Source: an uncultured Clostridia bacterium
GTDB lineage: Bacteria; Bacillota; Clostridia; TANB77; CAG-508
Reading direction: 5' to 3'
Length of the DNA: 64,000 nucleotides
Assembly (NCBI GenBank): GCA_948739805.1
Contig: CAPYID010000002.1
Location: 48,295-112,294 of the forward strand
Each line of letters begins with the position of its first letter. Within the stretch, counting starts at the first letter, position 1. The translations under genes were made by a program, and so were the position numbers. The notes beneath the pieces were generated by a model. The model worked only from the letters and a program-made list of their open reading frames with translations, did no database searches and was not told the origin of the DNA. Of this stretch, positions 7,190-18,827 are shown piece after piece.

Positions 7190-9964
7190 ATGGGAATTTT
7201 TAACAAAATTTTTAAATCATATTCAGAAAGAGAAGTACAAAGGGTAATGCCACTTGTGGAAAAAATAAATAGTTTAGAGGAGGAAATTTCAAAACTATCA
7301 GATATAGAATTATCAAATAAAACCAAAGAATTTAAAGATAGGTTACAAAATGGAGAAACCCTAGATGATATTTTAACAGAGGCATTTGCAGTAATGAGAG
7401 AAGCATCAAAAAGAGTTTTAGGAATGAGACATTTTGATGTTCAATTAATTGGTGGAATTATTTTGCACCAAGGAAGAATTGCAGAGATGAAAACAGGAGA
7501 AGGAAAAACTTTAGTTGCAACACTTCCAGCATATTTAAATGCGTTATCAGGAAATGGAGTTCATGTAGTTACAGTAAACGATTATCTAGCCACACGTGAT
7601 AGTGAATGGATGGGAAAAGTTTACAAATTTTTAGGTCTAACAGTAGGACTAGTTATAAGTGGAATGAAGCCAGAAGAAAAACAAAAGGCATATTCAGCAG
7701 ACATTACATATGGAACAAATAATGAATTTGGATTTGATTATTTAAGAGATAATATGGTTATATATAAAAACCAAGCAGTTCAAAGAGGATTAAACTTTGC
7801 AATTGTAGACGAGATAGATAGTATATTAATAGATGAGGCACGTACACCATTAATTATTTCAGGAAAAGCAGCAGCTTCATCAGAAATGTATACAAAAGCA
7901 GACGATTTTGTAAAAAAACTTACACCAAAAATAATTGTAGAAGAAGATGTTAAAGACATTGATCAAGCAGAAGACAATGAAAAATACGACTATATAGTAG
8001 ATTTAAAGGCAAAATCTGCATCTCTTACAGCAAAGGGAATTGACAAAGCAGAAAAAACATTTAACTTAGAGAATTTAGATGACTTAGATAACTCAGATTT
8101 AGTTCATCACATAAACCAAGCATTACGAGCACATGGTATAATGAAAAAAGATATAGATTATATAGTAAAAGGTGGAGAAGTATTAATTGTAGACGAATTT
8201 ACAGGACGTATAATGTATGGTAGACGTTATAATAATGGTTTACATCAAGCAATAGAAGCAAAAGAAAGAGTAAGAATAGCAGATGAATCAAAAACTCTAG
8301 CAACAATAACATTCCAAAATTACTTTAGAATGTATTCAAAACTTTCAGGAATGACAGGTACTGCGATGACAGAAGAAGCAGAATTTCAAGAAATATACAA
8401 ATTAGATGTTATAACAATACCTACAAATAAACCAATGATAAGAGAAGACTCAAATGATGTAATATACAAAAATGAGAAAGCGAAATTTAATGCAATAGTA
8501 GAAGAAATTAAGAAAAGTCATGAAAAAGGTCAACCAGTATTAGTAGGAACAATATCAATTGAAAACTCTGAAAAGATAAGTAGTATATTAAAAAAAGAAG
8601 GAATACCACACCAAGTATTAAATGCAAAATTCCATGAAAGAGAAGCTGCTATTATAGCACAAGCAGGTAAATATGGTGCAGTAACAATATCTACAAACAT
8701 GGCAGGACGTGGTACAGACATTATACTAGGTGGAAACTCAGAATACTTAGCAAGACAAGAGATGAAAAAAAAGGCATATTCAGACGAACTAATAGAGCAG
8801 GCAAATGCATATAATGAAACAGATGACCAAGAAGTATTAGAAGCAAGAAATATATTTAGAGATTTAGAGAAGAAATTTGACGAAGAAATAAAAGAAGAGA
8901 AGGAAAAAGTAATAAAAGCTGGTGGACTAAAAATCATAGGAACAGAAAGGCACGAATCAAGAAGAATTGATAATCAGTTAAGAGGACGTAGTGGAAGACA
9001 AGGAGATGTCGGAGAATCAAAATTCTTCATAGGACTTGATGATAATTTAATGAAAATATTTGGTGGAGATGTAATAACAAATATATATGATAAAATAGGC
9101 GCAGATGAAGACATGCCTATAGAAGCAAAAATGTTATCAAGTGCAGTAGAAAATGCACAAAAAAGAGTTGAAGGAAGAAACTTTAGTATACGTAAGAATG
9201 TATTACAATATGATGATGTTATGAACACACAAAGAGAAATAATATATGGACAAAGAAGAGATGTATTAGACGGTAAAAATTTAAAAGAAAGTATATTAAA
9301 AATGATTGAGCCAGTAGCAACAGAAGTAGTTTCAAGTTTCTTTGGGACAGAAGAAAATGAAAATATAAATAAAGAATCATTAGCACAAGAAATAAAAAAC
9401 AATTTTGGGATTAGTGATATAGAAGCATTAAAAGAAGAAAAACTAAATCAAGTAGATATAATAAATGAGGTAGTAGAAAAATCAAAACAGAAATATGAAG
9501 AAAAAGAGCAAGAACTAGGCGAACAAGAAATAAGAGAACTAGAAAGAGTAGTAATGTTAAAAGTAGTAGACCAAAAGTGGATGGATCATATAGATGCAAT
9601 GGATGACTTAAAAGAAGGAATTGGTTTACGTGCTTATGGACAAAAAGATCCAGTAGCACAATATAGAATAGAAGGATTTGACATGTTTGACGCAATGGTA
9701 GCAGAAATACAAAAAGATGTAGTAAAAATCCTATTAAACATTCAAAAAGCAGGAGAACTAAAAAGAGAACAAACAGCAAAGATAACATCTGTTGCTCAAG
9801 CAACATTAGATAGTATAAATGTAGTAACAGAAAATAAGGAACAAGTTCCACAAACATCAGATGTGAAAAGAACACCTGTAGTAAATCAAGGACCAAAAGT
9901 AGGAAGAAATGACCCTTGTCCTTGTGGAAGTGGGAAGAAGTATAAAAACTGCTGTGGAAAATAG
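7190..9964 (+). CDS. secA: preprotein translocase subunit SecA
   Basis: Full-length SecA with DEAD-motor motifs ([27 protein letters not shown]) and C-terminal zinc-finger tail [18 protein letters not shown] at 7190 preferred over the upstream GTG at 7172 because of RBS spacing. Confidence 0.95.
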
Positions 9965-10070: not shown

Positions 10071-10499
10071 ATGGTATATAATGATAAATATAAATTTGTA
10101 GCAATTATTAATGAAAAAATAGAAATAGGAAAGGCATTAAATGCAATTGCACATATGGGATTAGGATTAGTAAATATAGCAGATGAAGAAACAAAAGAAA
10201 ATATGTCTTTTGTTGATTTCCCAGATAAAGACGAAGAGTTACATAAGAGTATATCTGGATTATCTTTAATCGTTTTGGGCGGAAAAAATAACGAAATAAA
10301 AAAGGCTAGAAGGCAATTTAAAGAAGAAGGAATATTATTTGTGGACTTTATAGAAACAATGACAGGAGATACATATGCGGAGCAGTTGGTAAAAACAAAA
10401 GAGATAAATACAGAAGAACACAATTATTTTGGATTACTAGCATTTGGAGAAATAGAAAAAATAAATCCTATTACAAAAAGATTGTCATTATATAAATAA
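10071..10499 (+). CDS. DUF2000-family protein (predicted PTH2-like fold)
   Basis: 142 aa. KFVAIINEKIEIGKALNAIAHMGLGL matches the DUF2000 N-terminal pattern as I recall it. GGGAGG RBS 9 nt upstream. Confidence 0.5.
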   Translation: MVYNDKYKFVAIINEKIEIGKALNAIAHMGLGLVNIADEETKENMSFVDFPDKDEELHKSISGLSLIVLGGKNNEIKKARRQFKEEGILFVDFIETMTGDTYAEQLVKTKEINTEEHNYFGLLAFGEIEKINPITKRLSLYK

Positions 10500-10567
10500 G
10501 TTTAAATTATTAAAGTCTTCTATTGGGAACAAAAATGGCAAACTTGGGAAAATAAATTCAAAAAATA

Positions 10568-10598
10568 TTGACAAATGGTATAAAAACGGGTTATAATG
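10568..10598 (+). promoter_or_regulatory. promoter of the toxI-like/toxN unit (TTGACA ... TATAAT)
   Basis: TTGACA at 10568-10573 and TATAAT at 10593-10598 (spacer 18-19 nt). Confidence 0.45.
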
Positions 10599-10602
10599 AA
10601 TA

Positions 10603-10682
10603 TAATAGAAATAGATATTTAATATCTATTTACAGTTAAAAATCAGGTGAACCCTACCAATAAGTGGGAGCTGTAAAATCAA
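10603..10682 (+). ncRNA. toxI: putative type III antitoxin RNA (ToxI-like): 5' hairpin plus a single 36-nt ToxI-like repeat unit (10645-10680)
   Basis: Unit AGGTGAACCCTACCAATAAGTGGGAGCTGTAAAATC is bounded by AAAAT on both sides 36-37 nt apart. It aligns block-by-block with the ToxI repeat as I recall it (AGGTGA..CTACC..AAGTG..AGCT..AAAT(T)C). Palindrome AAATAGATATTTAATATCTATTT at 10609-10631. It sits between a promoter and a terminator immediately upstream of a ToxN/AbiQ-family ORF. Confidence 0.45.
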
Positions 10683-10719
10683 AAGGTAGAGATCTAGGTC
10701 TTTACCTTTTATATTTTTT
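10683..10719 (+). terminator. intrinsic terminator/attenuator between antitoxin RNA and toxN (typical type III TA architecture)
   Basis: AAAGGTAGAGATC/GGTCTTTACCTTT imperfect hairpin followed by TATATTTTTT. Confidence 0.5.
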
Positions 10720-10730
10720 AGGAGGGAAAA

Positions 10731-11258
10731 ATGAAACTATATTCAGTAACAGATAAATATATAGATTATTTAAGACAATTTGATTATAAAGTTTATGACA
10801 ATAAAGAAGATAGAAGAAAAGTAATGAGAAAATATTTGGGTATAGTTTTAACAATAAATGAAATGAACTATTATATACCAATGTCATCTCCTAAAAAGAG
10901 TGATTATAAAGATAATGAAATAAGAAAATCTATTGTTCCTATTGTAAGAATTGTATCAAATGAGGAAGTCGATAATGTACCAGTTTTAAAAGGAACATTA
11001 AGAATTAGTAATATGATACCTGTTCCAGATAGTGAATTAATATTATATGAGCCTAAATATGAAAGAAACAAAAATTATAAGATATTAGTTGAAAAGGAAC
11101 TTGAATTTATTGGGAAAAATGAAGAAATGATAAAGAAGTATGCAAGTATTATATATAATCAAAAAATTAATAATTATGATGTATCTTATATAAATAATGT
11201 TGTAGATTTTAAGTTATTAGAACAAAAATGTAAGGAATATAAAAGCGACAATAATTGA
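10731..11258 (+). CDS. toxN: type III toxin-antitoxin system ToxN/AbiQ-family endoribonuclease toxin
   Basis: 175 aa. MKLYSVTDKYIDYLRQFDYKV...KYLGIVLTINEMNYYIPMSSPKK closely parallels the AbiQ N-terminus as I recall it (MKFYTISSKYIEYLKEFDDKV...IGIVLEIQGHKYLAPLTSPKK). Size matches AbiQ/ToxN. RBS AGGAGGG. Confidence 0.8.
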   Translation: MKLYSVTDKYIDYLRQFDYKVYDNKEDRRKVMRKYLGIVLTINEMNYYIPMSSPKKSDYKDNEIRKSIVPIVRIVSNEEVDNVPVLKGTLRISNMIPVPDSELILYEPKYERNKNYKILVEKELEFIGKNEEMIKKYASIIYNQKINNYDVSYINNVVDFKLLEQKCKEYKSDNN

Positions 11259-11312: not shown

Positions 11313-11333
11313 AAATCGAATGTAAACATTGTT
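11313..11333 (+). repeat. 21-bp direct repeat AAATCGAATGTAAACATTGTT, copy 1 (second copy at 18433-18453)
   Basis: Exact 21/21 identity between the two loci, which flank the integrase-containing segment. Confidence 0.7.
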
Positions 11334-11470: not shown

Positions 11471-11520
11471 CATGTGGAAGTGGAAAGAAGTATAAGAATT
11501 GTTGCGGAAGAAATGAGTAA
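11471..11520 (+). mobile_element. diverged duplicate of the secA 3' end (encodes ...[15 protein letters not shown]): att-site remnant of a secA-3'-targeting integrative element
   Basis: TGTGGAAGTGGAAAGAAGTATAAGAATTGTTGCGGAA versus the secA end TGTGGAAGTGGGAAGAAGTATAAAAACTGCTGTGGAA (9924-9960). Integrase gene lies 230 bp downstream. Confidence 0.6.
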
Positions 11521-14288: not shown

Positions 14289-14453
14289 TACCTAGATTTC
14301 AAAAACACTTCAAAATTATTTCATTGTATTTAGAAAAAATATGTTCTATACTTATAATATGAAAATTTAACAAAGAAAAAACAAGAGTAATTATGTATCA
14401 AAAACGATATATGGTTATTCTTGTTTTCTTTTATGTTTGGGAGGTGTTGGATA

Positions 14454-14696
14454 ATGGCAAAATTAGAAAACGAAAGACTTATTTATACAGTTCAAGAAAC
14501 TGCAAAAATATTACACTCAAGCCCTAATTATATATATGAATTAGTCAAAAAAGGAAAGCTTAAAGCAGTAAAATTGAAAAGTATAAGGATTCTTAAATCT
14601 ACTTTAGAAAATTTTTTAAAAGAAAATGAAGGAAATGATCTATCAGATATTGATAGTATAAGGAAAATATCAATATACGAAGATATAGAAAGATAA
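14454..14696 (+). CDS. xis: excisionase/helix-turn-helix DNA-binding protein (Xis-like)
   Basis: Small basic protein. YTVQETAKILHSSPNYIYELVKKGKLKAVKL HTH segment. Lies immediately upstream of int2. ATG at 14454 with GGGAGG RBS preferred over the ORF-track start 14421. Confidence 0.55.
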   Translation: MAKLENERLIYTVQETAKILHSSPNYIYELVKKGKLKAVKLKSIRILKSTLENFLKENEGNDLSDIDSIRKISIYEDIER

Positions 14697-14702
14697 TAAG
14701 TT

Positions 14703-15974
14703 ATGGGTAATGTTACAATTCAAAAAAGAGGCAAATATTATCAATATAAATTTGAAGTAGCTAAGGTAGAGGGCAAAAGAAAATTCATAAATAAATCTGG
14801 GTTTAAAACAAAAGATGAAGCAATTAAAGCAGGAAATATTGCTTATACAGAATATTTAAACACTGGTTTGAGTTTTAAAGAAAAGGCAATTTCATTTAGT
14901 GATTATTTAGATTACTGGTATGAAAATTATTGTGAAATAAACTTAAAATATAATACAAGAAGAACTTATAAAACAATAATTGATAAATATTTAAAACCAG
15001 AACTAGGCAAGTATAGATTAAGTTCTTTAACAAGTGTAAAGCTAAATTCATATATCGTTGATTTATGCAACAAATATAACTATAAAAAATCATATTATAG
15101 AAATATATTAAAAGTTTTGAAAAACTGTTTTAGAGTATCAACAGATGTATATGGATTTATAAGGTATAATCCAACATTAACTTTAAAATTACCTAAAATA
15201 GAAGATGAGAAGGCTTTTAAGAAACATTTATATAATAAAAATGAAATTGATATAATTTTAGATAGATTTAAAGATGATGATACTTTTACTTGTGAATTTA
15301 TTACAAGTTGTTTTACTGGAATGAGAACAGGGGAAGTATGTGCATTAACTTGGGATGATATAGATTTCGAAAATAGAGTTATAAATGTTAGGCATACAGT
15401 ATATGACAAGCCAAAAGATAATAAAGGAAGATGGTATATAGGAACTACTAAAACTAAAAAATGGACAAGACAAATTAATATGTGTGAAACTGTATATAAT
15501 GCTTTAATGAATTATAAAAAGAAACAACAATATATGAAAAAAATATATGGTAAAGAATATTTAACTTATCATTTTGAAGATGTACTCAATAAATATGGAA
15601 AAGTGGTAGAACAACGAATTGTGCAGAATGAAAGTAATATCCTTCAAATAAACAAAGCAGATATGGTATTTACAAGACTTAATGGCAAATATGTTGGCAG
15701 AAATATTTTAAATTATCCATTTAAGATAATTCATAAAGAACTTGGTATTGAAAATTGTAGATTTTACGATTTAAGAGGAAGTTATGCAACTATTAATTTA
15801 AGAAATGGTATAGAAATCAGAGCTGTTGCAGATATTTTAGGACACAAATATATAGAAACTACTGAAAACTTTTATATATCTAGTACTGATGAAGATCAGA
15901 AAGATGTAAGTAATGTATTTGACAATTTAATGAGTTCAAAAACAATTGAAGATATTATAAAATATGAGATATGA
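14703..15974 (+). CDS. int: site-specific tyrosine recombinase/integrase, copy 2 (paralog of 11747-13015)
   Basis: 423 aa, collinear with int1 (RGKYYQYKFEVAKVEGKRKFINKSGFKTKDEA..., HKELGIENCRFYDLRGSYAT, GHKYIETT). Confidence 0.85.
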   Translation: MGNVTIQKRGKYYQYKFEVAKVEGKRKFINKSGFKTKDEAIKAGNIAYTEYLNTGLSFKEKAISFSDYLDYWYENYCEINLKYNTRRTYKTIIDKYLKPELGKYRLSSLTSVKLNSYIVDLCNKYNYKKSYYRNILKVLKNCFRVSTDVYGFIRYNPTLTLKLPKIEDEKAFKKHLYNKNEIDIILDRFKDDDTFTCEFITSCFTGMRTGEVCALTWDDIDFENRVINVRHTVYDKPKDNKGRWYIGTTKTKKWTRQINMCETVYNALMNYKKKQQYMKKIYGKEYLTYHFEDVLNKYGKVVEQRIVQNESNILQINKADMVFTRLNGKYVGRNILNYPFKIIHKELGIENCRFYDLRGSYATINLRNGIEIRAVADILGHKYIETTENFYISSTDEDQKDVSNVFDNLMSSKTIEDIIKYEI

Positions 15975-16131
15975 TAATTTTAAGAGCTGGCTTGGCTGGC
16001 TCTTTAGAAATTATAAAAAATAGTATCAAGGAATTAATTTTTTAATTATTGTAATTTTATGAAATTTATGATATATTTTTAAAAAAACTTTAAAATCTAT
16101 ATACTCAAAAAAATAAAGTCAGGAGAAATAA

Positions 16132-16578
16132 ATGGTAAATATTGAATATGCAAATGCCTATAGTGAAGTTTTAGAAATATTAAAATATATTTCTAAAGAA
16201 GATTATAGTAAGATTCCACAAAATAAAATAGAATTATTTAAAACAAATTCAAACAAAGAATATAAATTTATATATAATCCTGAAAAGACATTAGATGAAC
16301 AAAATGTTTCAAAAAGAGCAAAAGCGATAATAGGATTATTATTTAGAGATTATTGGGCAACTGATGTACAAAGAGAAAAAATTATTATAAAACAAAAAAA
16401 TGATAGATTTGTTTTAGAAGAACAAAAAAAGTCATTATATGATGTTAAAAATATATTTAGGAAAAGAAATATTAACAATGAAACTAAAGTAAAAGAAGTT
16501 ACAGAAATGATAGTTTATAAAGAAAACTTTATTAAAAAATGTATTAATAAAATAAAAACTTTTCTTAATTTAAAATAG
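16132..16578 (+). CDS. hypothetical protein (148 aa), first gene of a two-gene cassette
   Basis: RBS AGGAG 8 nt upstream. Stop is 3 nt before the next start. No recognisable motif. Confidence 0.5.
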   Translation: MVNIEYANAYSEVLEILKYISKEDYSKIPQNKIELFKTNSNKEYKFIYNPEKTLDEQNVSKRAKAIIGLLFRDYWATDVQREKIIIKQKNDRFVLEEQKKSLYDVKNIFRKRNINNETKVKEVTEMIVYKENFIKKCINKIKTFLNLK

Positions 16579-16581
16579 GAG

Positions 16582-17526
16582 ATGAATATGCAATATATAA
16601 ATAGTAAAGATTTAGATTATATAAATTCATTCTTTCATTTTTCAAGAATTGATAATAGAGACAGTATTGAACAGAATGGTTTACAAGCTGTTGCAGGTGG
16701 AGAAAATGAGGCTGGAAATGATAGAGATAACAAGACTATTTATTTTTCAAAAGGTATAAGTGGAGTTTTAAAAGCAATAGATGTTTGGGCAAGATGGGAA
16801 TACGATACATATGTAAGTAAATCAGATAGGGATATAAATTATGGTTATCAAGGTTATGATAAATCTGTTATGAAAGAAATTATTTTTGATAAATTATATA
16901 ACGATTTTAAAAATAGACAGTATTATATAGTAGATTTAAAAGAGGGAAAAGATGGAGAATTTGAGTATGTAGATATAGACGTAAAAAAGGTTTTAGCAAG
17001 AGATAAAAATGGAGTGCCATATAGAGGAGCTGTTTGGAAATATGGTGAATTTAGTGATTGGGGAACTTTAGATAATCCTAATAATGTACAAGAAAATTGG
17101 AATATGAATACAAAAATAGGCGAAAGGACAATTTCGAGTGATAGGTTAAAAATTATAGAAACAGAAAGTGGAAGAACGGATGCCTTAAGCTTTGCATTAG
17201 AATCGTATTCAAAATTTAGAGCATTAGTACCTGAACAAGATAGTCCAATGTATGAAATATTAGATAATTTTATGTCTTATGCAAAAGAAAGATATAAAAG
17301 TGATAAGGACTATGAAGATGGAATGCCTGATTTGGGAAGAAGAAAGGTTAATAAACGAGAACAAAAAAAATATCAAAAAATTAATAAAATTGAGACAAAA
17401 GGATTAGGAAGGCAAGTTGTTGCAGAATTAAAAGATATACAATTAATGGATGAAACAGAAAGAACACTAAACGAACAACAAAGAGCAATGCAACAAAATA
17501 AAGATGCTCAAAATCAATCTTTATAG
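16582..17526 (+). CDS. hypothetical protein (314 aa) with N-terminal motif resembling DarT/DUF4433-type ADP-ribosyltransferases, plus a K/R/E/Q-rich C-terminal tail
   Basis: FFHFSRIDNRDSIEQNGL versus the DarT N-terminal motif as I recall it (IYHITHIDNLPSIL..GL). A following IYF segment resembles DarT VPFYF. RBS AGGAG. Translationally coupled to the upstream ORF. Confidence 0.5.
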   Translation: MNMQYINSKDLDYINSFFHFSRIDNRDSIEQNGLQAVAGGENEAGNDRDNKTIYFSKGISGVLKAIDVWARWEYDTYVSKSDRDINYGYQGYDKSVMKEIIFDKLYNDFKNRQYYIVDLKEGKDGEFEYVDIDVKKVLARDKNGVPYRGAVWKYGEFSDWGTLDNPNNVQENWNMNTKIGERTISSDRLKIIETESGRTDALSFALESYSKFRALVPEQDSPMYEILDNFMSYAKERYKSDKDYEDGMPDLGRRKVNKREQKKYQKINKIETKGLGRQVVAELKDIQLMDETERTLNEQQRAMQQNKDAQNQSL

Positions 17527-17615
17527 CACTTAATGAGAATATGTTGATTTTATATTTAAACTAGATTATTTTGTATAAAAACGATTATAGAATACAACGT
17601 AAGGAGTGATATAAC

Positions 17616-18300
17616 ATGAAAATATATGTATATTTAGATGAAAGTCGGATCAATTCATAAAAATAGTAAAACAAGATATTTTGCAGTAGGTGGATATTTT
17701 TCTTATGAAGAAGACAGACTAAAAATAAAAGCGAAATATAAAAAAGAAAATCTTAAATTAAAGAAAGAAAAAAGTTTAGATTTAGATACTGAAATAAAAT
17801 CATATGATATGACTGAAGATGAAAAAGTAAGAATCTTCAATAAAATACAAGATATTGAAACTTTTCATGGTTGTGTTAAAGTATTCGATAAAAAGTATAT
17901 GAAAAAAGAGATAGTTGATTCTGATATATTTTTCAATTATGCTGTAAAAGTTCTAATTCAAGATTGCATATTGCCAGAATTGAACTTACAAGAAAATGAC
18001 GAGCCAATAGAGTTTATTATTAGTATAGATAACAGAAACATAAGAGTAGGGGAATTAAACAATTTGGAAACATATTTAAAAACTGAATTTTGTATTTATG
18101 ATGATGATTTTAAAATTACATATTATGATTCTAAAACAAATTATGGAATACAATTAGCAGATTTAACAGTTAATACTTTTTATAATTCATACAAAGATAT
18201 AAGTATTGTTGAAAATTTAATAAAAGAATTAAAACCTAAAAACTTTAGAGTAAGTTTATTTCCGAGAAATAGTAGGAATAAAAAACAAAATAATACATAA
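17616..18300 (+). pseudogene. DUF3800-family protein gene interrupted by a +1 frameshift (extra C at about 17646)
   Basis: Frame 0 from ATG 17616 (RBS AAGGAG) gives MKIYVYLDESRINS*. Removing the C at 17646 gives MKIYVYLDESGSIHKNSKTRYFAVGG..., the canonical DUF3800 DESG start. The downstream QLAD (QxxD) motif is present. Confidence 0.6.
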
Positions 18301-18316
18301 AATATTAGTGAAATAT

Positions 18317-18345
18317 TTGACATGCAATTTTTTGTGTGGTAAAAT
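18317..18345 (+). promoter_or_regulatory. candidate promoter TTGACA-17-TGgTAAAAT
   Basis: Seen directly. Followed only by a hairpin. Confidence 0.3.
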
Positions 18346-18360
18346 ATTTATAGAGTAAGA

Positions 18361-18420
18361 CCTAGGTAAGGTAGCTAAAAGCTAAGCGTATGTTAAGTAC
18401 GCTACCACCTAGGCATTTTT
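18361..18420 (+). terminator. long imperfect hairpin (CCTAGGTAAGGTAGC ... GCTACCACCTAGG, with an inner AGCGTA/TACGCT stem) followed by a T-run: terminator or small structured RNA
   Basis: Seen directly. GC content higher than surroundings. Confidence 0.45.
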
Positions 18421-18432
18421 ATTATAATTTAA

Positions 18433-18453
18433 AAATCGAATGTAAACATTGTT
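18433..18453 (+). repeat. 21-bp direct repeat AAATCGAATGTAAACATTGTT, copy 2
   Basis: Identical to 11313-11333. Confidence 0.7.
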
Positions 18454-18470
18454 GAATATTGTATAATTAA

Positions 18471-18827
18471 ATGCACGTTGTAGACATAAAATATCTACCA
18501 GTATGGAAGTATTGTGCAGAAGTAGCACAAAGAAAAAATGAGGAAAATGAGACAGCAAAAGGAACAAACTTAAAAATAGGAAATGATATGAAGCTAGCTA
18601 ATTTTATTGAGAAAGAAATAAAAGAAGAAAAAAGTTCACCAGAAGTAATAGAATATAAAATAAAACAAGCAAAATTTGAAACGACATTGTGTTTTAAGAC
18701 AATATATAACTACATTGATAAAGAAATATTAGAAGTAAAAAGAAAAGACTTAACATGCGGAAATTACAATAAAAAAGAGAAGTTCAAAAAGGAAGAATCG
18801 GAGTTTTTAAAACCAAATAAAGATTGA
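18471..18827 (+). pseudogene. IS30-family transposase fragment (HTH_38 region only; no DDE domain)
   Basis: SSPEVIEYKIKQAKFETTLCFKTIYNYIDKEIL resembles the IS30 WSPEQI...ISHETIYR(W/Y)IY segment. ORF is only 118 aa versus about 340 aa for an intact transposase. Confidence 0.4.

Follow-up and report, generated by a model that had tools for sequence, protein, structure and literature searches.

The 64,000-nucleotide stretch of contig CAPYID010000002.1 analysed here (the window; uncultured Clostridia bacterium, G+C ~26%, genes mostly on the + strand) carries, between an integrase gene and a fragment of an IS30 transposase gene, two closely spaced genes to which the initial annotation of this DNA had drawn attention; they encode proteins of 148 and 314 amino acids (aa), neither of which belongs to a described family. 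This cassette (16132-17526) is best explained as a single instance of a two-part module that is widespread in uncultured gut Clostridia and in which a small helical protein is encoded beside an enzyme-like protein that carries a short, portable tag. The open reading frames (ORFs) of both genes and that of a 220-aa protein further downstream are present on the + strand as originally annotated. The elements of the cassette are given below, with residues numbered as in the 314-aa ORF.

16121..16125, + strand: ribosome-binding site (AGGAG) for the first gene, that of the small protein, 6 nucleotides (nt) 5' of ATG 16132, as read from the sequence
16132..16578, + strand: ORF for the 148-aa small partner protein; N-domain helical (residues 1-103), followed by a linker modelled with low confidence and, at the C-terminus, an amphipathic helix rich in K
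16577..16581, + strand: AGGAG box over the stop codon of the small gene, favouring ATG 16588 as the next start
16582-17526, + strand: whole 314-aa ORF
16582..17385, + strand: head of the 314-aa protein (residues 1-268), resembling the ADP-ribosyltransferase (ART) superfamily; H19, F55, D133, K136 and N174 invariant
17386..17511, + strand: putative docking tag (residues 269-310), KIETKGLGRQVVAELKDIQLMDETERTLNEQQRAMQQNKDAQ; match to the hidden Markov model (HMM) of the tag, E=3.9e-14

The two genes had been described as translationally coupled, with the stop codon of the first only 3 nt before the start of the second. The coupling stands and the spacing needs to be revised, since the AGGAG at 16577-16581 directly abuts ATG 16582 but lies 6 nt 5' of ATG 16588, all of the homologues of the larger protein start at its second Met, and the gene calls of other assemblies yield a protein of 312 aa. 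On these grounds the larger protein most likely consists of 312 aa beginning at ATG 16588, with an intergenic gap of 9 nt that would still amount to tight coupling.

A short tag, its small partner protein and the heads that carry the tag

The small protein (~150 aa, basic, pI ~8.8) has more than 2,424 homologue clusters at 90% identity, and a single variant of it occupies 2,140 blocks of the contig index, on more than 1,000 contigs. Its AlphaFold (AF2) model is all-helical, with a predicted local distance difference test score (pLDDT) of 80 that rises above 90 over residues 1-100. No family match was found for it in Pfam or PADLOC (E<=1), NCBIfam or PHROGs, the Panacea domain (DUF4065) being likewise absent at Pfam E<=1, and no fold could be assigned by Foldseek against the Protein Data Bank (PDB; best E 2.6) or by profile search against the PDB (best E 1.5). 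The partner had been predicted not to be a macrodomain protein, and the lack of a family match together with a helical model that has no fold relatives agrees with that prediction; by Pfam, NCBIfam, PADLOC and the model, it resembles an operon partner neither of the DarG macrodomain type nor of the NADAR type.

One abundant variant of the small protein (P0092) is encoded next to a 306-aa kinase-like protein whose head is unrelated to the ART-like head of the window protein, and these two neighbours have their last ~40 residues in common (LGRQV..EL.D..L.DETE...Q). Residues 269-310 of the window ORF are the sole match to the tag HMM in the 64 kb. The tag measures ~40 residues, is usually acidic (mean net charge -5.3) and conforms to the pattern [ST]Q.LG.[EQ].[VL].E..D..L.DETE...Q; its position is usually C-terminal, with N-terminal copies in L018 and L073 and internal copies, at the junction of kinase-like and ART-like regions, in L014, L015 and L046. 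The K/R/E/Q-rich tail to which the initial annotation drew attention is real, and it is this conserved element. In the monomer model of the 314-aa protein the tag region is disordered or helical.

A scan of 185,579 species genomes yielded 66 loci, every one of them in uncultured Clostridia or Bacillota of the gut, at which the small gene is coupled to a large and variable neighbour with gaps of -1 to 35 nt; the neighbour is mostly upstream of the small gene, at some loci downstream of it, and at some on both sides. Over these loci the tag HMM detected 66 tagged ORFs, ~60 of the 66 within 60 nt of a small gene, and this adjacency holds irrespective of the kind of head and of the place of the tag in the protein. 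When the tag was trimmed off, BLAST clustering sorted the remaining heads into 15 clusters, as follows.

GH10-like (one with a PHP domain): 14 loci
ART-like: 12 loci
Kinase-like: 11 loci
mTERF repeats: 5 loci (10 genes)
Unassigned family of about 720 aa: 5 loci
S8 peptidase: 2 loci
S-adenosylmethionine (SAM) methyltransferase: 2 loci
Unassigned family of about 290 aa: 2 loci
Singletons: 7 clusters

None of the tagged ORFs has an N-terminus resembling a signal peptide. The mTERF family is best known from eukaryotic organelles; tagged mTERF-repeat proteins occur in L030, L037, L040, L053 and L055 (Pfam E down to 5e-100), and in L040 (1989-5495) tagged mTERF genes stand in tandem, up to three of them ahead of one small gene. 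Outside the 15 clusters, a Fic-domain protein encoded beside a small gene (L052) has a tail that looks tag-like by eye and is unscored by the tag HMM. A three-gene variant of the cassette (L013-L019, for example L016:5055-5981) includes a gene for a tail-anchored protein of 308 or 314 aa, with a C-terminal transmembrane helix and no Pfam match, situated 19-20 nt 5' of the small gene, with a tagged kinase-like or ART-like gene on the 3' side.

The similarity of the small proteins at different loci to that of the window can be set against the kind of tag and the kind of head found next to them, where the percentages refer to identity of the small-protein N-domain to its counterpart in the window.

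Canonical tag on unrelated heads (kinase-like, GH10-like, 774-aa protein): 76-87%
Canonical tag on distant ART heads (28-32% identical to that of the window): 69-72%
Other tail types on ART heads 57-68% identical to that of the window: 25-34%

Over the loci, divergence of the tag correlates with divergence of the small protein (Mantel r=0.62, p=0.0005), and homologues of the small protein still accompany the divergent tags of the distant ART-like homologues P0178 and P0198 (hhalign 99.8%). Since the identity of the small protein follows the type of tag and not the type of head, the conserved and co-evolving unit appears to be the tag plus the small protein, with heads swapped at the junction between them. 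The co-variation is a strong indication of binding between the small protein and the tag, in which the N-domain would be the part of the small protein involved.

Conservation of the pair in other genomes had been named in the initial annotation as a check that could refute it, and the outcome does not refute it: the two-gene unit is conserved across species in varied genomic contexts and with variable gene order, as in toxin-antitoxin (TA) and PanAT loci, and at loci picked through the ART-like gene the small gene is adjacent in 10 of 12, the exceptions being a fusion to a GNAT acetyltransferase and a long alternative tail. In two close ART-like homologues (P0016, at L005:407-2014, and P0035; 55-62% identity) a GNAT domain is fused to the C-terminus where the tag would be, and there is no adjoining small gene. 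A small protein that would be the specific immunity protein or antitoxin of the ART domain is not supported by the comparison, for its sequence tracks the tag at the C-terminus, and this tag and its partner are found with 15 unrelated head clusters. Relative to polymorphic toxin-immunity systems the polarity is reversed, in that the heads vary while the tag and the partner that tracks it are conserved.

The head of the larger protein and the ADP-ribosyltransferase superfamily

The 314-aa protein has no match in Pfam, NCBIfam, PADLOC (E<=1) or PHROGs, and searches of the PDB with the single sequences of both proteins returned noise only. A first homologue search gathered 53 close relatives of the larger protein, 0 of them annotated, and an exhaustive profile search extended the family to 205 representatives in which a core of ~240 residues occurs alone or within proteins of up to 947 aa; no Pfam domains that might be fusion partners were found in the longer ones. 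When a profile of 87 family members was compared with the PDB, the top match was E. coli DarT1 (8baq, E=0.0012, over fFHFT..N..SI...GL), followed by Tpt1 over the same His motif (E=0.45). For a reference profile, true DarT genes were recovered from PLSDB and 80 PF14487 proteins were gathered, to which hhalign aligned the family profile with 92.7% probability and a score of 52.1, confidently over 25 columns (the His/NAD motif) only, where NAD stands for nicotinamide adenine dinucleotide. Controls with 100 column-shuffled profiles scored 13.2±2.4 (maximum 19.1) and the reversed profile 12.6, which places the real score ~16 standard deviations above the shuffles. The DarT-like motif at the N-terminus (FFHFSRIDNRDSIEQNGL), as noticed in the initial annotation, is therefore statistically real.

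Over the 87 diverse members, H19, F55, D133, K136 and N174 are invariant, position 20 is F in 83% and position 56 is S in 76%. The IYF segment of the window protein belongs to a family-level element, [FY]54-F55-S56-x-G58. In the structure of DarT1, H17 and F18 lie on β1, S63 replaces the classical Tyr and E152 is the essential Glu (PMC11543638), and H19/F20 and S56 of the new family parallel H17/F18 and S63 as described there. Position 171, at the edge of a predicted strand and just before a W-N-M-x-T strand, is acidic in 98% of the members (E 59%, D 39%), and E/D171 is the likely candidate for the catalytic acid of the family; in the hhalign alignment it is not paired with the catalytic Glu of DarT (E152 in DarT1, E160 in DarT2). 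Two other candidates for catalytic residues, E193 and Q170, are invariant in close relatives and were rejected on the finding that they are not conserved across the wide family.

The AF2 model of the larger protein, built from 39 homologues (pLDDT 84, predicted template-modelling score 0.83), has a compact α/β core of six strands, a disordered segment at 273-294 and a terminal helix. Apart from generic helical repeats, its structural matches are nearly all ART folds, among them CC0527, MbcT, four DarT entries, ArtA, pertussis S1, a RES toxin, TreTu, TreX, Tpt1 and CARDS.

Taken at the level of superfamily, the description of the 314-aa protein as DarT-like was most likely correct, and taken as membership of the DarT family it was not. 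The PF14487 HMM does not match the window protein at E<=1 and matches 1 of 87 relatives (E=0.014), nothing in the new family can be equated with confidence to the QAE catalytic strand or the Arg/Asp NAD loop of DarT, and the gene pair includes no DarG macrodomain or NADAR partner. What the family has in common with DarT1 and DarT2 is the β1-α1 NAD motif F-H-F-T..N..SI...GL, with its His and nicotinamide-stacking Phe, together with the predicted six-strand core and the small two-gene cassette; the Ser after the β2 aromatics corresponds to S63 of DarT1. In contrast to DarT, its head is ~60 residues longer, D133, K136 and N174 are invariant only in the new family, and the docking tag is absent from DarT. 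Membership of the Tpt1/KptA family was rejected as well: 1 of 87 members matches PF01885 (PTS_2-RNA, E=0.0027), only the His motif aligns, and there is no invariant Arg for the R-H-R-R tetrad. With the support from the DarT profile confined to a 25-residue motif and no match to a curated family, the head most likely represents a new, highly divergent family within the ART superfamily, with DarT1 and Tpt1 as its nearest relatives in the NAD-binding His motif.

The island in the window and the context of other copies

The initial annotation had placed the pair among an integrase, an IS30 fragment and a ToxIN-type system, and profile searches bear out these surroundings, which are listed here together with the neighbouring DUF3800 gene and its RNA.

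10731-11258: ToxN/AbiQ (Pfam 3.9e-38, PADLOC AbiQ 1e-43)
14703-15974: integrase, profile match; with the gene for an HTH_17 excisionase-like protein, 14421-15974
17638..18300, + strand: DUF3800 gene, 220 aa (Pfam DUF3800, PF12686, E=1.8e-11, 45.4 bits against a cutoff of 21); neighbouring module, outside the conserved cassette
18340..18427, + strand: DUF3800-I RNA-like element (Rfam RF02969, 34.1 bits)
18471-18827: IS30 transposase fragment (NCBIfam 1e-9)

The third gene had been correctly identified as DUF3800 and had been counted as a member of the cassette, a role that the wider comparison contradicts. DUF3800 was found at 0 of the ~76 other loci fetched through the small protein, and it has an associated RNA motif of its own; for both reasons it is a separate module and not a component of the cassette. 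DUF3800 genes are associated with DUF3800-I RNA (PMC5737381), and here too an RNA-like element lies directly downstream of the gene, its central conserved stems matching the published motif. It differs from the published pairs in that its score falls below the gathering threshold of 44.2 bits (E=0.037 over 11 kb, 0.0009 locally) and that it lacks both the 5' hairpin and the stem of the terminator; the best promoter-like site of the region, at 18317-18345, precedes it. By its sequence, the element at 18340-18427 is probably a variant of the DUF3800-associated RNA.

The ToxN/AbiQ gene lies 5 kb upstream of the cassette, behind a second integrase islet, and no ToxI/antiQ-like tandem repeat array was found upstream of it (10400-10730) by Tandem Repeats Finder or Rfam. 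A RelB/YafQ toxin-antitoxin pair is located ~8 kb downstream of the cassette, at ~24.8-25.3 kb (also L079:18680-19128), and with this pair also nearby the stretch holds several independent TA-like modules. The window contains no tRNA that could mark an island boundary, and its repeat pairs are ambiguous between attachment (att) sites and the ends of insertion sequences (IS). An exact 21-nt direct repeat, AAATCGAATGTAAACATTGTT, is present at 11313-11333 and 18433-18453 (0.02 chance matches expected) and flanks a 7.1-kb segment with both integrases, NUDIX and Ser hydrolase genes, the excisionase-like gene, the cassette and DUF3800; it may be an att site or, since its right-hand copy abuts the IS30 fragment, an IS terminal repeat. 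The 3' end of secA (SEC-C motif) is duplicated over 37 nt at 86% identity (9923-9959 and 11473-11509), with the two copies flanking DUF2000 and ToxN/AbiQ, in what looks, from the sequence, like successive island insertions at this site.

At other loci the setting of the module is different. All 22 contigs that were read with an identical small protein keep the gene order of the window, and among 131 flanking genes at other loci (within ~4.5 kb) no family accounts for more than 3 of the genes: they are mostly housekeeping genes, with an occasional integrase, RhuM, YhcG or candidate defence gene, and include no recurring secretion, conjugation or phage machinery. The defence-island context that had been read from the window is thus a local one. 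No relatives were found among the viral contigs of IMG/VR, INPHARED phages or PLSDB plasmids, by which carriage of the module by phages or plasmids was rejected, and a link to the polyvalent proteins of conjugative elements (PMC5512222) is unsupported, as transfer genes do not recur. The module behaves as a self-contained, dispersed and sometimes multi-copy cassette. On the human-gut contigs with P0092 (L007-L012), a kinase-like cassette occupies a fixed chromosomal site beside alr, an ATP-grasp gene and HU; upstream of it lies a hotspot for varied mobile elements (RepA_N/TnpV/relaxase, integrase, YhcG).

These observations bear on the idea that the tag serves as a signal for translocation or localisation and the small protein as an export or targeting chaperone, which hands effectors to a machine or membrane encoded elsewhere. 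The chaperones of type III secretion systems (T3SS) and of flagella, and the C-terminal signals and adaptors of type IV secretion systems (T4SS), would be its analogues. As in such effector-chaperone pairs, one short, mostly terminal signal is common to variable, effector-like heads, and a separate small helical partner is encoded beside each tagged gene or tandem array. GH10-like and S8 enzymes are usually extracellular and here lack a signal peptide, a tail-anchored membrane protein is encoded at some loci, and the K-rich amphipathic C-terminal helix in the model of the small protein could bind membrane. The comparison fails where machinery should be linked, since secretion or conjugation genes do not recur among the 131 neighbours, and the internal or N-terminal position of some tags would be odd for a terminal export signal; moreover, the fold searches show no likeness between the small protein and known chaperones. 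To our knowledge, no pathway resembling the T3SS/flagellar chaperones or T4SS is known in the Gram-positive hosts. We regard an export function as unlikely.

The proposal first made for this locus, a DarT-like ART toxin with a dedicated antitoxin or immunity protein for its ART domain and DUF3800 as a third component, can be judged on the same grounds. The tight coupling of the two genes, the ART-like head and the location of the pair within an integrase islet near ToxN are all as that model would have them. A dedicated ART-immunity pair is contradicted by the finding that the small protein co-varies with the tag and not with the ART head, the same partner being found with 14 head clusters that are not ART-like; DUF3800, with its own RNA partner, is absent from the other loci. 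The model therefore seems very improbable to us.

Possible functions of the tag and its partner

A plausible scheme for the cassette is that the enzyme part is made up of a variable head, a flexible linker and the ~40-residue tag, and that the N-domain of the basic, all-helical small protein would bind the tag. The head in the window would be an NAD-dependent transferase with nucleic acid or protein as its substrate, the NAD site being formed around F-H19-F20-[ST] and F55-S56, with E/D171 as catalytic acid. The small protein would then act as a tag-directed holder or neutraliser that keeps potentially harmful enzymes inactive or sequestered until their release, in a toxin-antitoxin or abortive-infection logic whose promiscuity would come from a portable handle and not from re-evolution of the antitoxin. 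This TA-like reading, to which we assign a probability of roughly 0.45, is favoured because the cassette is autonomous, patchy in its distribution and island-associated, with a variable gene order like that of PanAT loci (PMC8832971), and because it resembles the ChAD-SecB logic of toxin-antitoxin-chaperone (TAC) systems.

The likenesses are instructive for where they end. PanA (Panacea) systems consist of two-gene chromosomal loci with variable gene order, in which one conserved small partner is found with many unrelated enzyme or toxin domains (PMC8832971). The small protein lacks the DUF4065 domain of PanA, and PanA re-evolves its specificity for each toxin fold, whereas the promiscuity of the present cassette would reside in a portable and co-evolving tag. 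In TAC systems (PMC5105189, PMC6377645) a short C-terminal extension, ChAD, is grafted onto unrelated clients of a co-encoded small partner, as the tag appears to be here. The TAC partner is SecB-like and ours is not, ChAD is attached to the antitoxin and the tag to the enzyme, ChAD is aggregation-prone and the tag acidic and helical, and TAC loci comprise three genes instead of two.

A different role for the same docking would be that of a scaffold outside genetic conflict, the small protein recruiting enzymes to the nucleoid, the ribosome or the envelope, or acting as a shared regulatory subunit. Heads of the nucleic-acid-binding mTERF, methyltransferase, DarT/Tpt1-like and PHP kinds point to nucleic-acid substrates, the small protein is basic and more conserved than the heads, and many loci lie amid housekeeping genes, all of which would suit a scaffold. 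We consider it quite unlikely nevertheless: the module is patchily distributed, often in several copies and in association with islands (integrases, relaxases, variable flanks), the rapid swapping of heads is typical of conflict systems, and each enzyme comes with an adaptor gene of its own where a single hub gene might have been shared.

It can also be imagined that the roles are inverted, as in type VII TA systems, and that the heads modify the tag-docked small protein, through ADP-ribosylation, AMPylation, phosphorylation, methylation, acetylation or proteolysis, so that the small protein would be at once their substrate and the real effector. Many heads are of kinds that modify proteins (ART-like, Fic, kinase-like, methyltransferase, S8 and the GNAT fusions), and enzymatic antitoxins have a precedent in HEPN-MNT (PMC11586414). 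The GH10-like and mTERF heads are the commonest or among the commonest and are not protein-modifying, and nothing about the small protein recalls a known toxin; such an arrangement has little probability in our estimation.

Several points weigh against the neutraliser itself. The main difficulty lies with the mTERF-repeat and GH10-like TIM-barrel heads, which are atypical as toxins and would fit targeting or scaffolding better, and the binding of a tethered tag is not an obvious way of inhibiting 15 different active sites. The binding is deduced from co-variation and adjacency, and the co-variation of tag and small protein could in part reflect co-inheritance; the tag of the window copy has a net charge of only -1. 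Neither protein has a PADLOC match, and there is no consistent defence-island context. For the head, no Arg is invariant among the 87 members that could be compared with that of the DarT NAD loop (R52 in DarT1, R51 in DarT2), and the catalytic acid is not placeable by alignment.

Stated so as to cover more than one function, the module might be a plug-and-socket system in which a portable ~40-residue tag and a co-evolving receptor of ~150 aa are shuffled as one unit among at least 15 unrelated enzyme families, the new DarT/Tpt1-like ART family being one of them, with recognition serving either neutralisation or targeting and export, and we hold this tentatively, at slightly less than an even chance. 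We found nothing in the literature on a portable tag whose co-evolving partner is common to unrelated enzymes; the closest concepts are PanA, TAC and the effector-chaperone systems, each of which differs in a defining feature.

The new ART-like family, with its conserved H, F-S, D, K and N and the acidic position 171, broadens what is known of the chemistry of DarT, Tpt1 and their kin, and the tag and its small partner would constitute a portable docking pair through which enzymes of unrelated families could join with one cognate partner. Should the partner neutralise the enzymes, the promiscuity of an antitoxin would be achieved through the transfer of a handle, with no interface having to evolve anew, and the pair would also offer a ready-made orthogonal tag and binder for engineering. 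If, on the other hand, the partner targets the enzymes, the module might represent a new effector pathway in the abundant uncultured Clostridia of the human gut.

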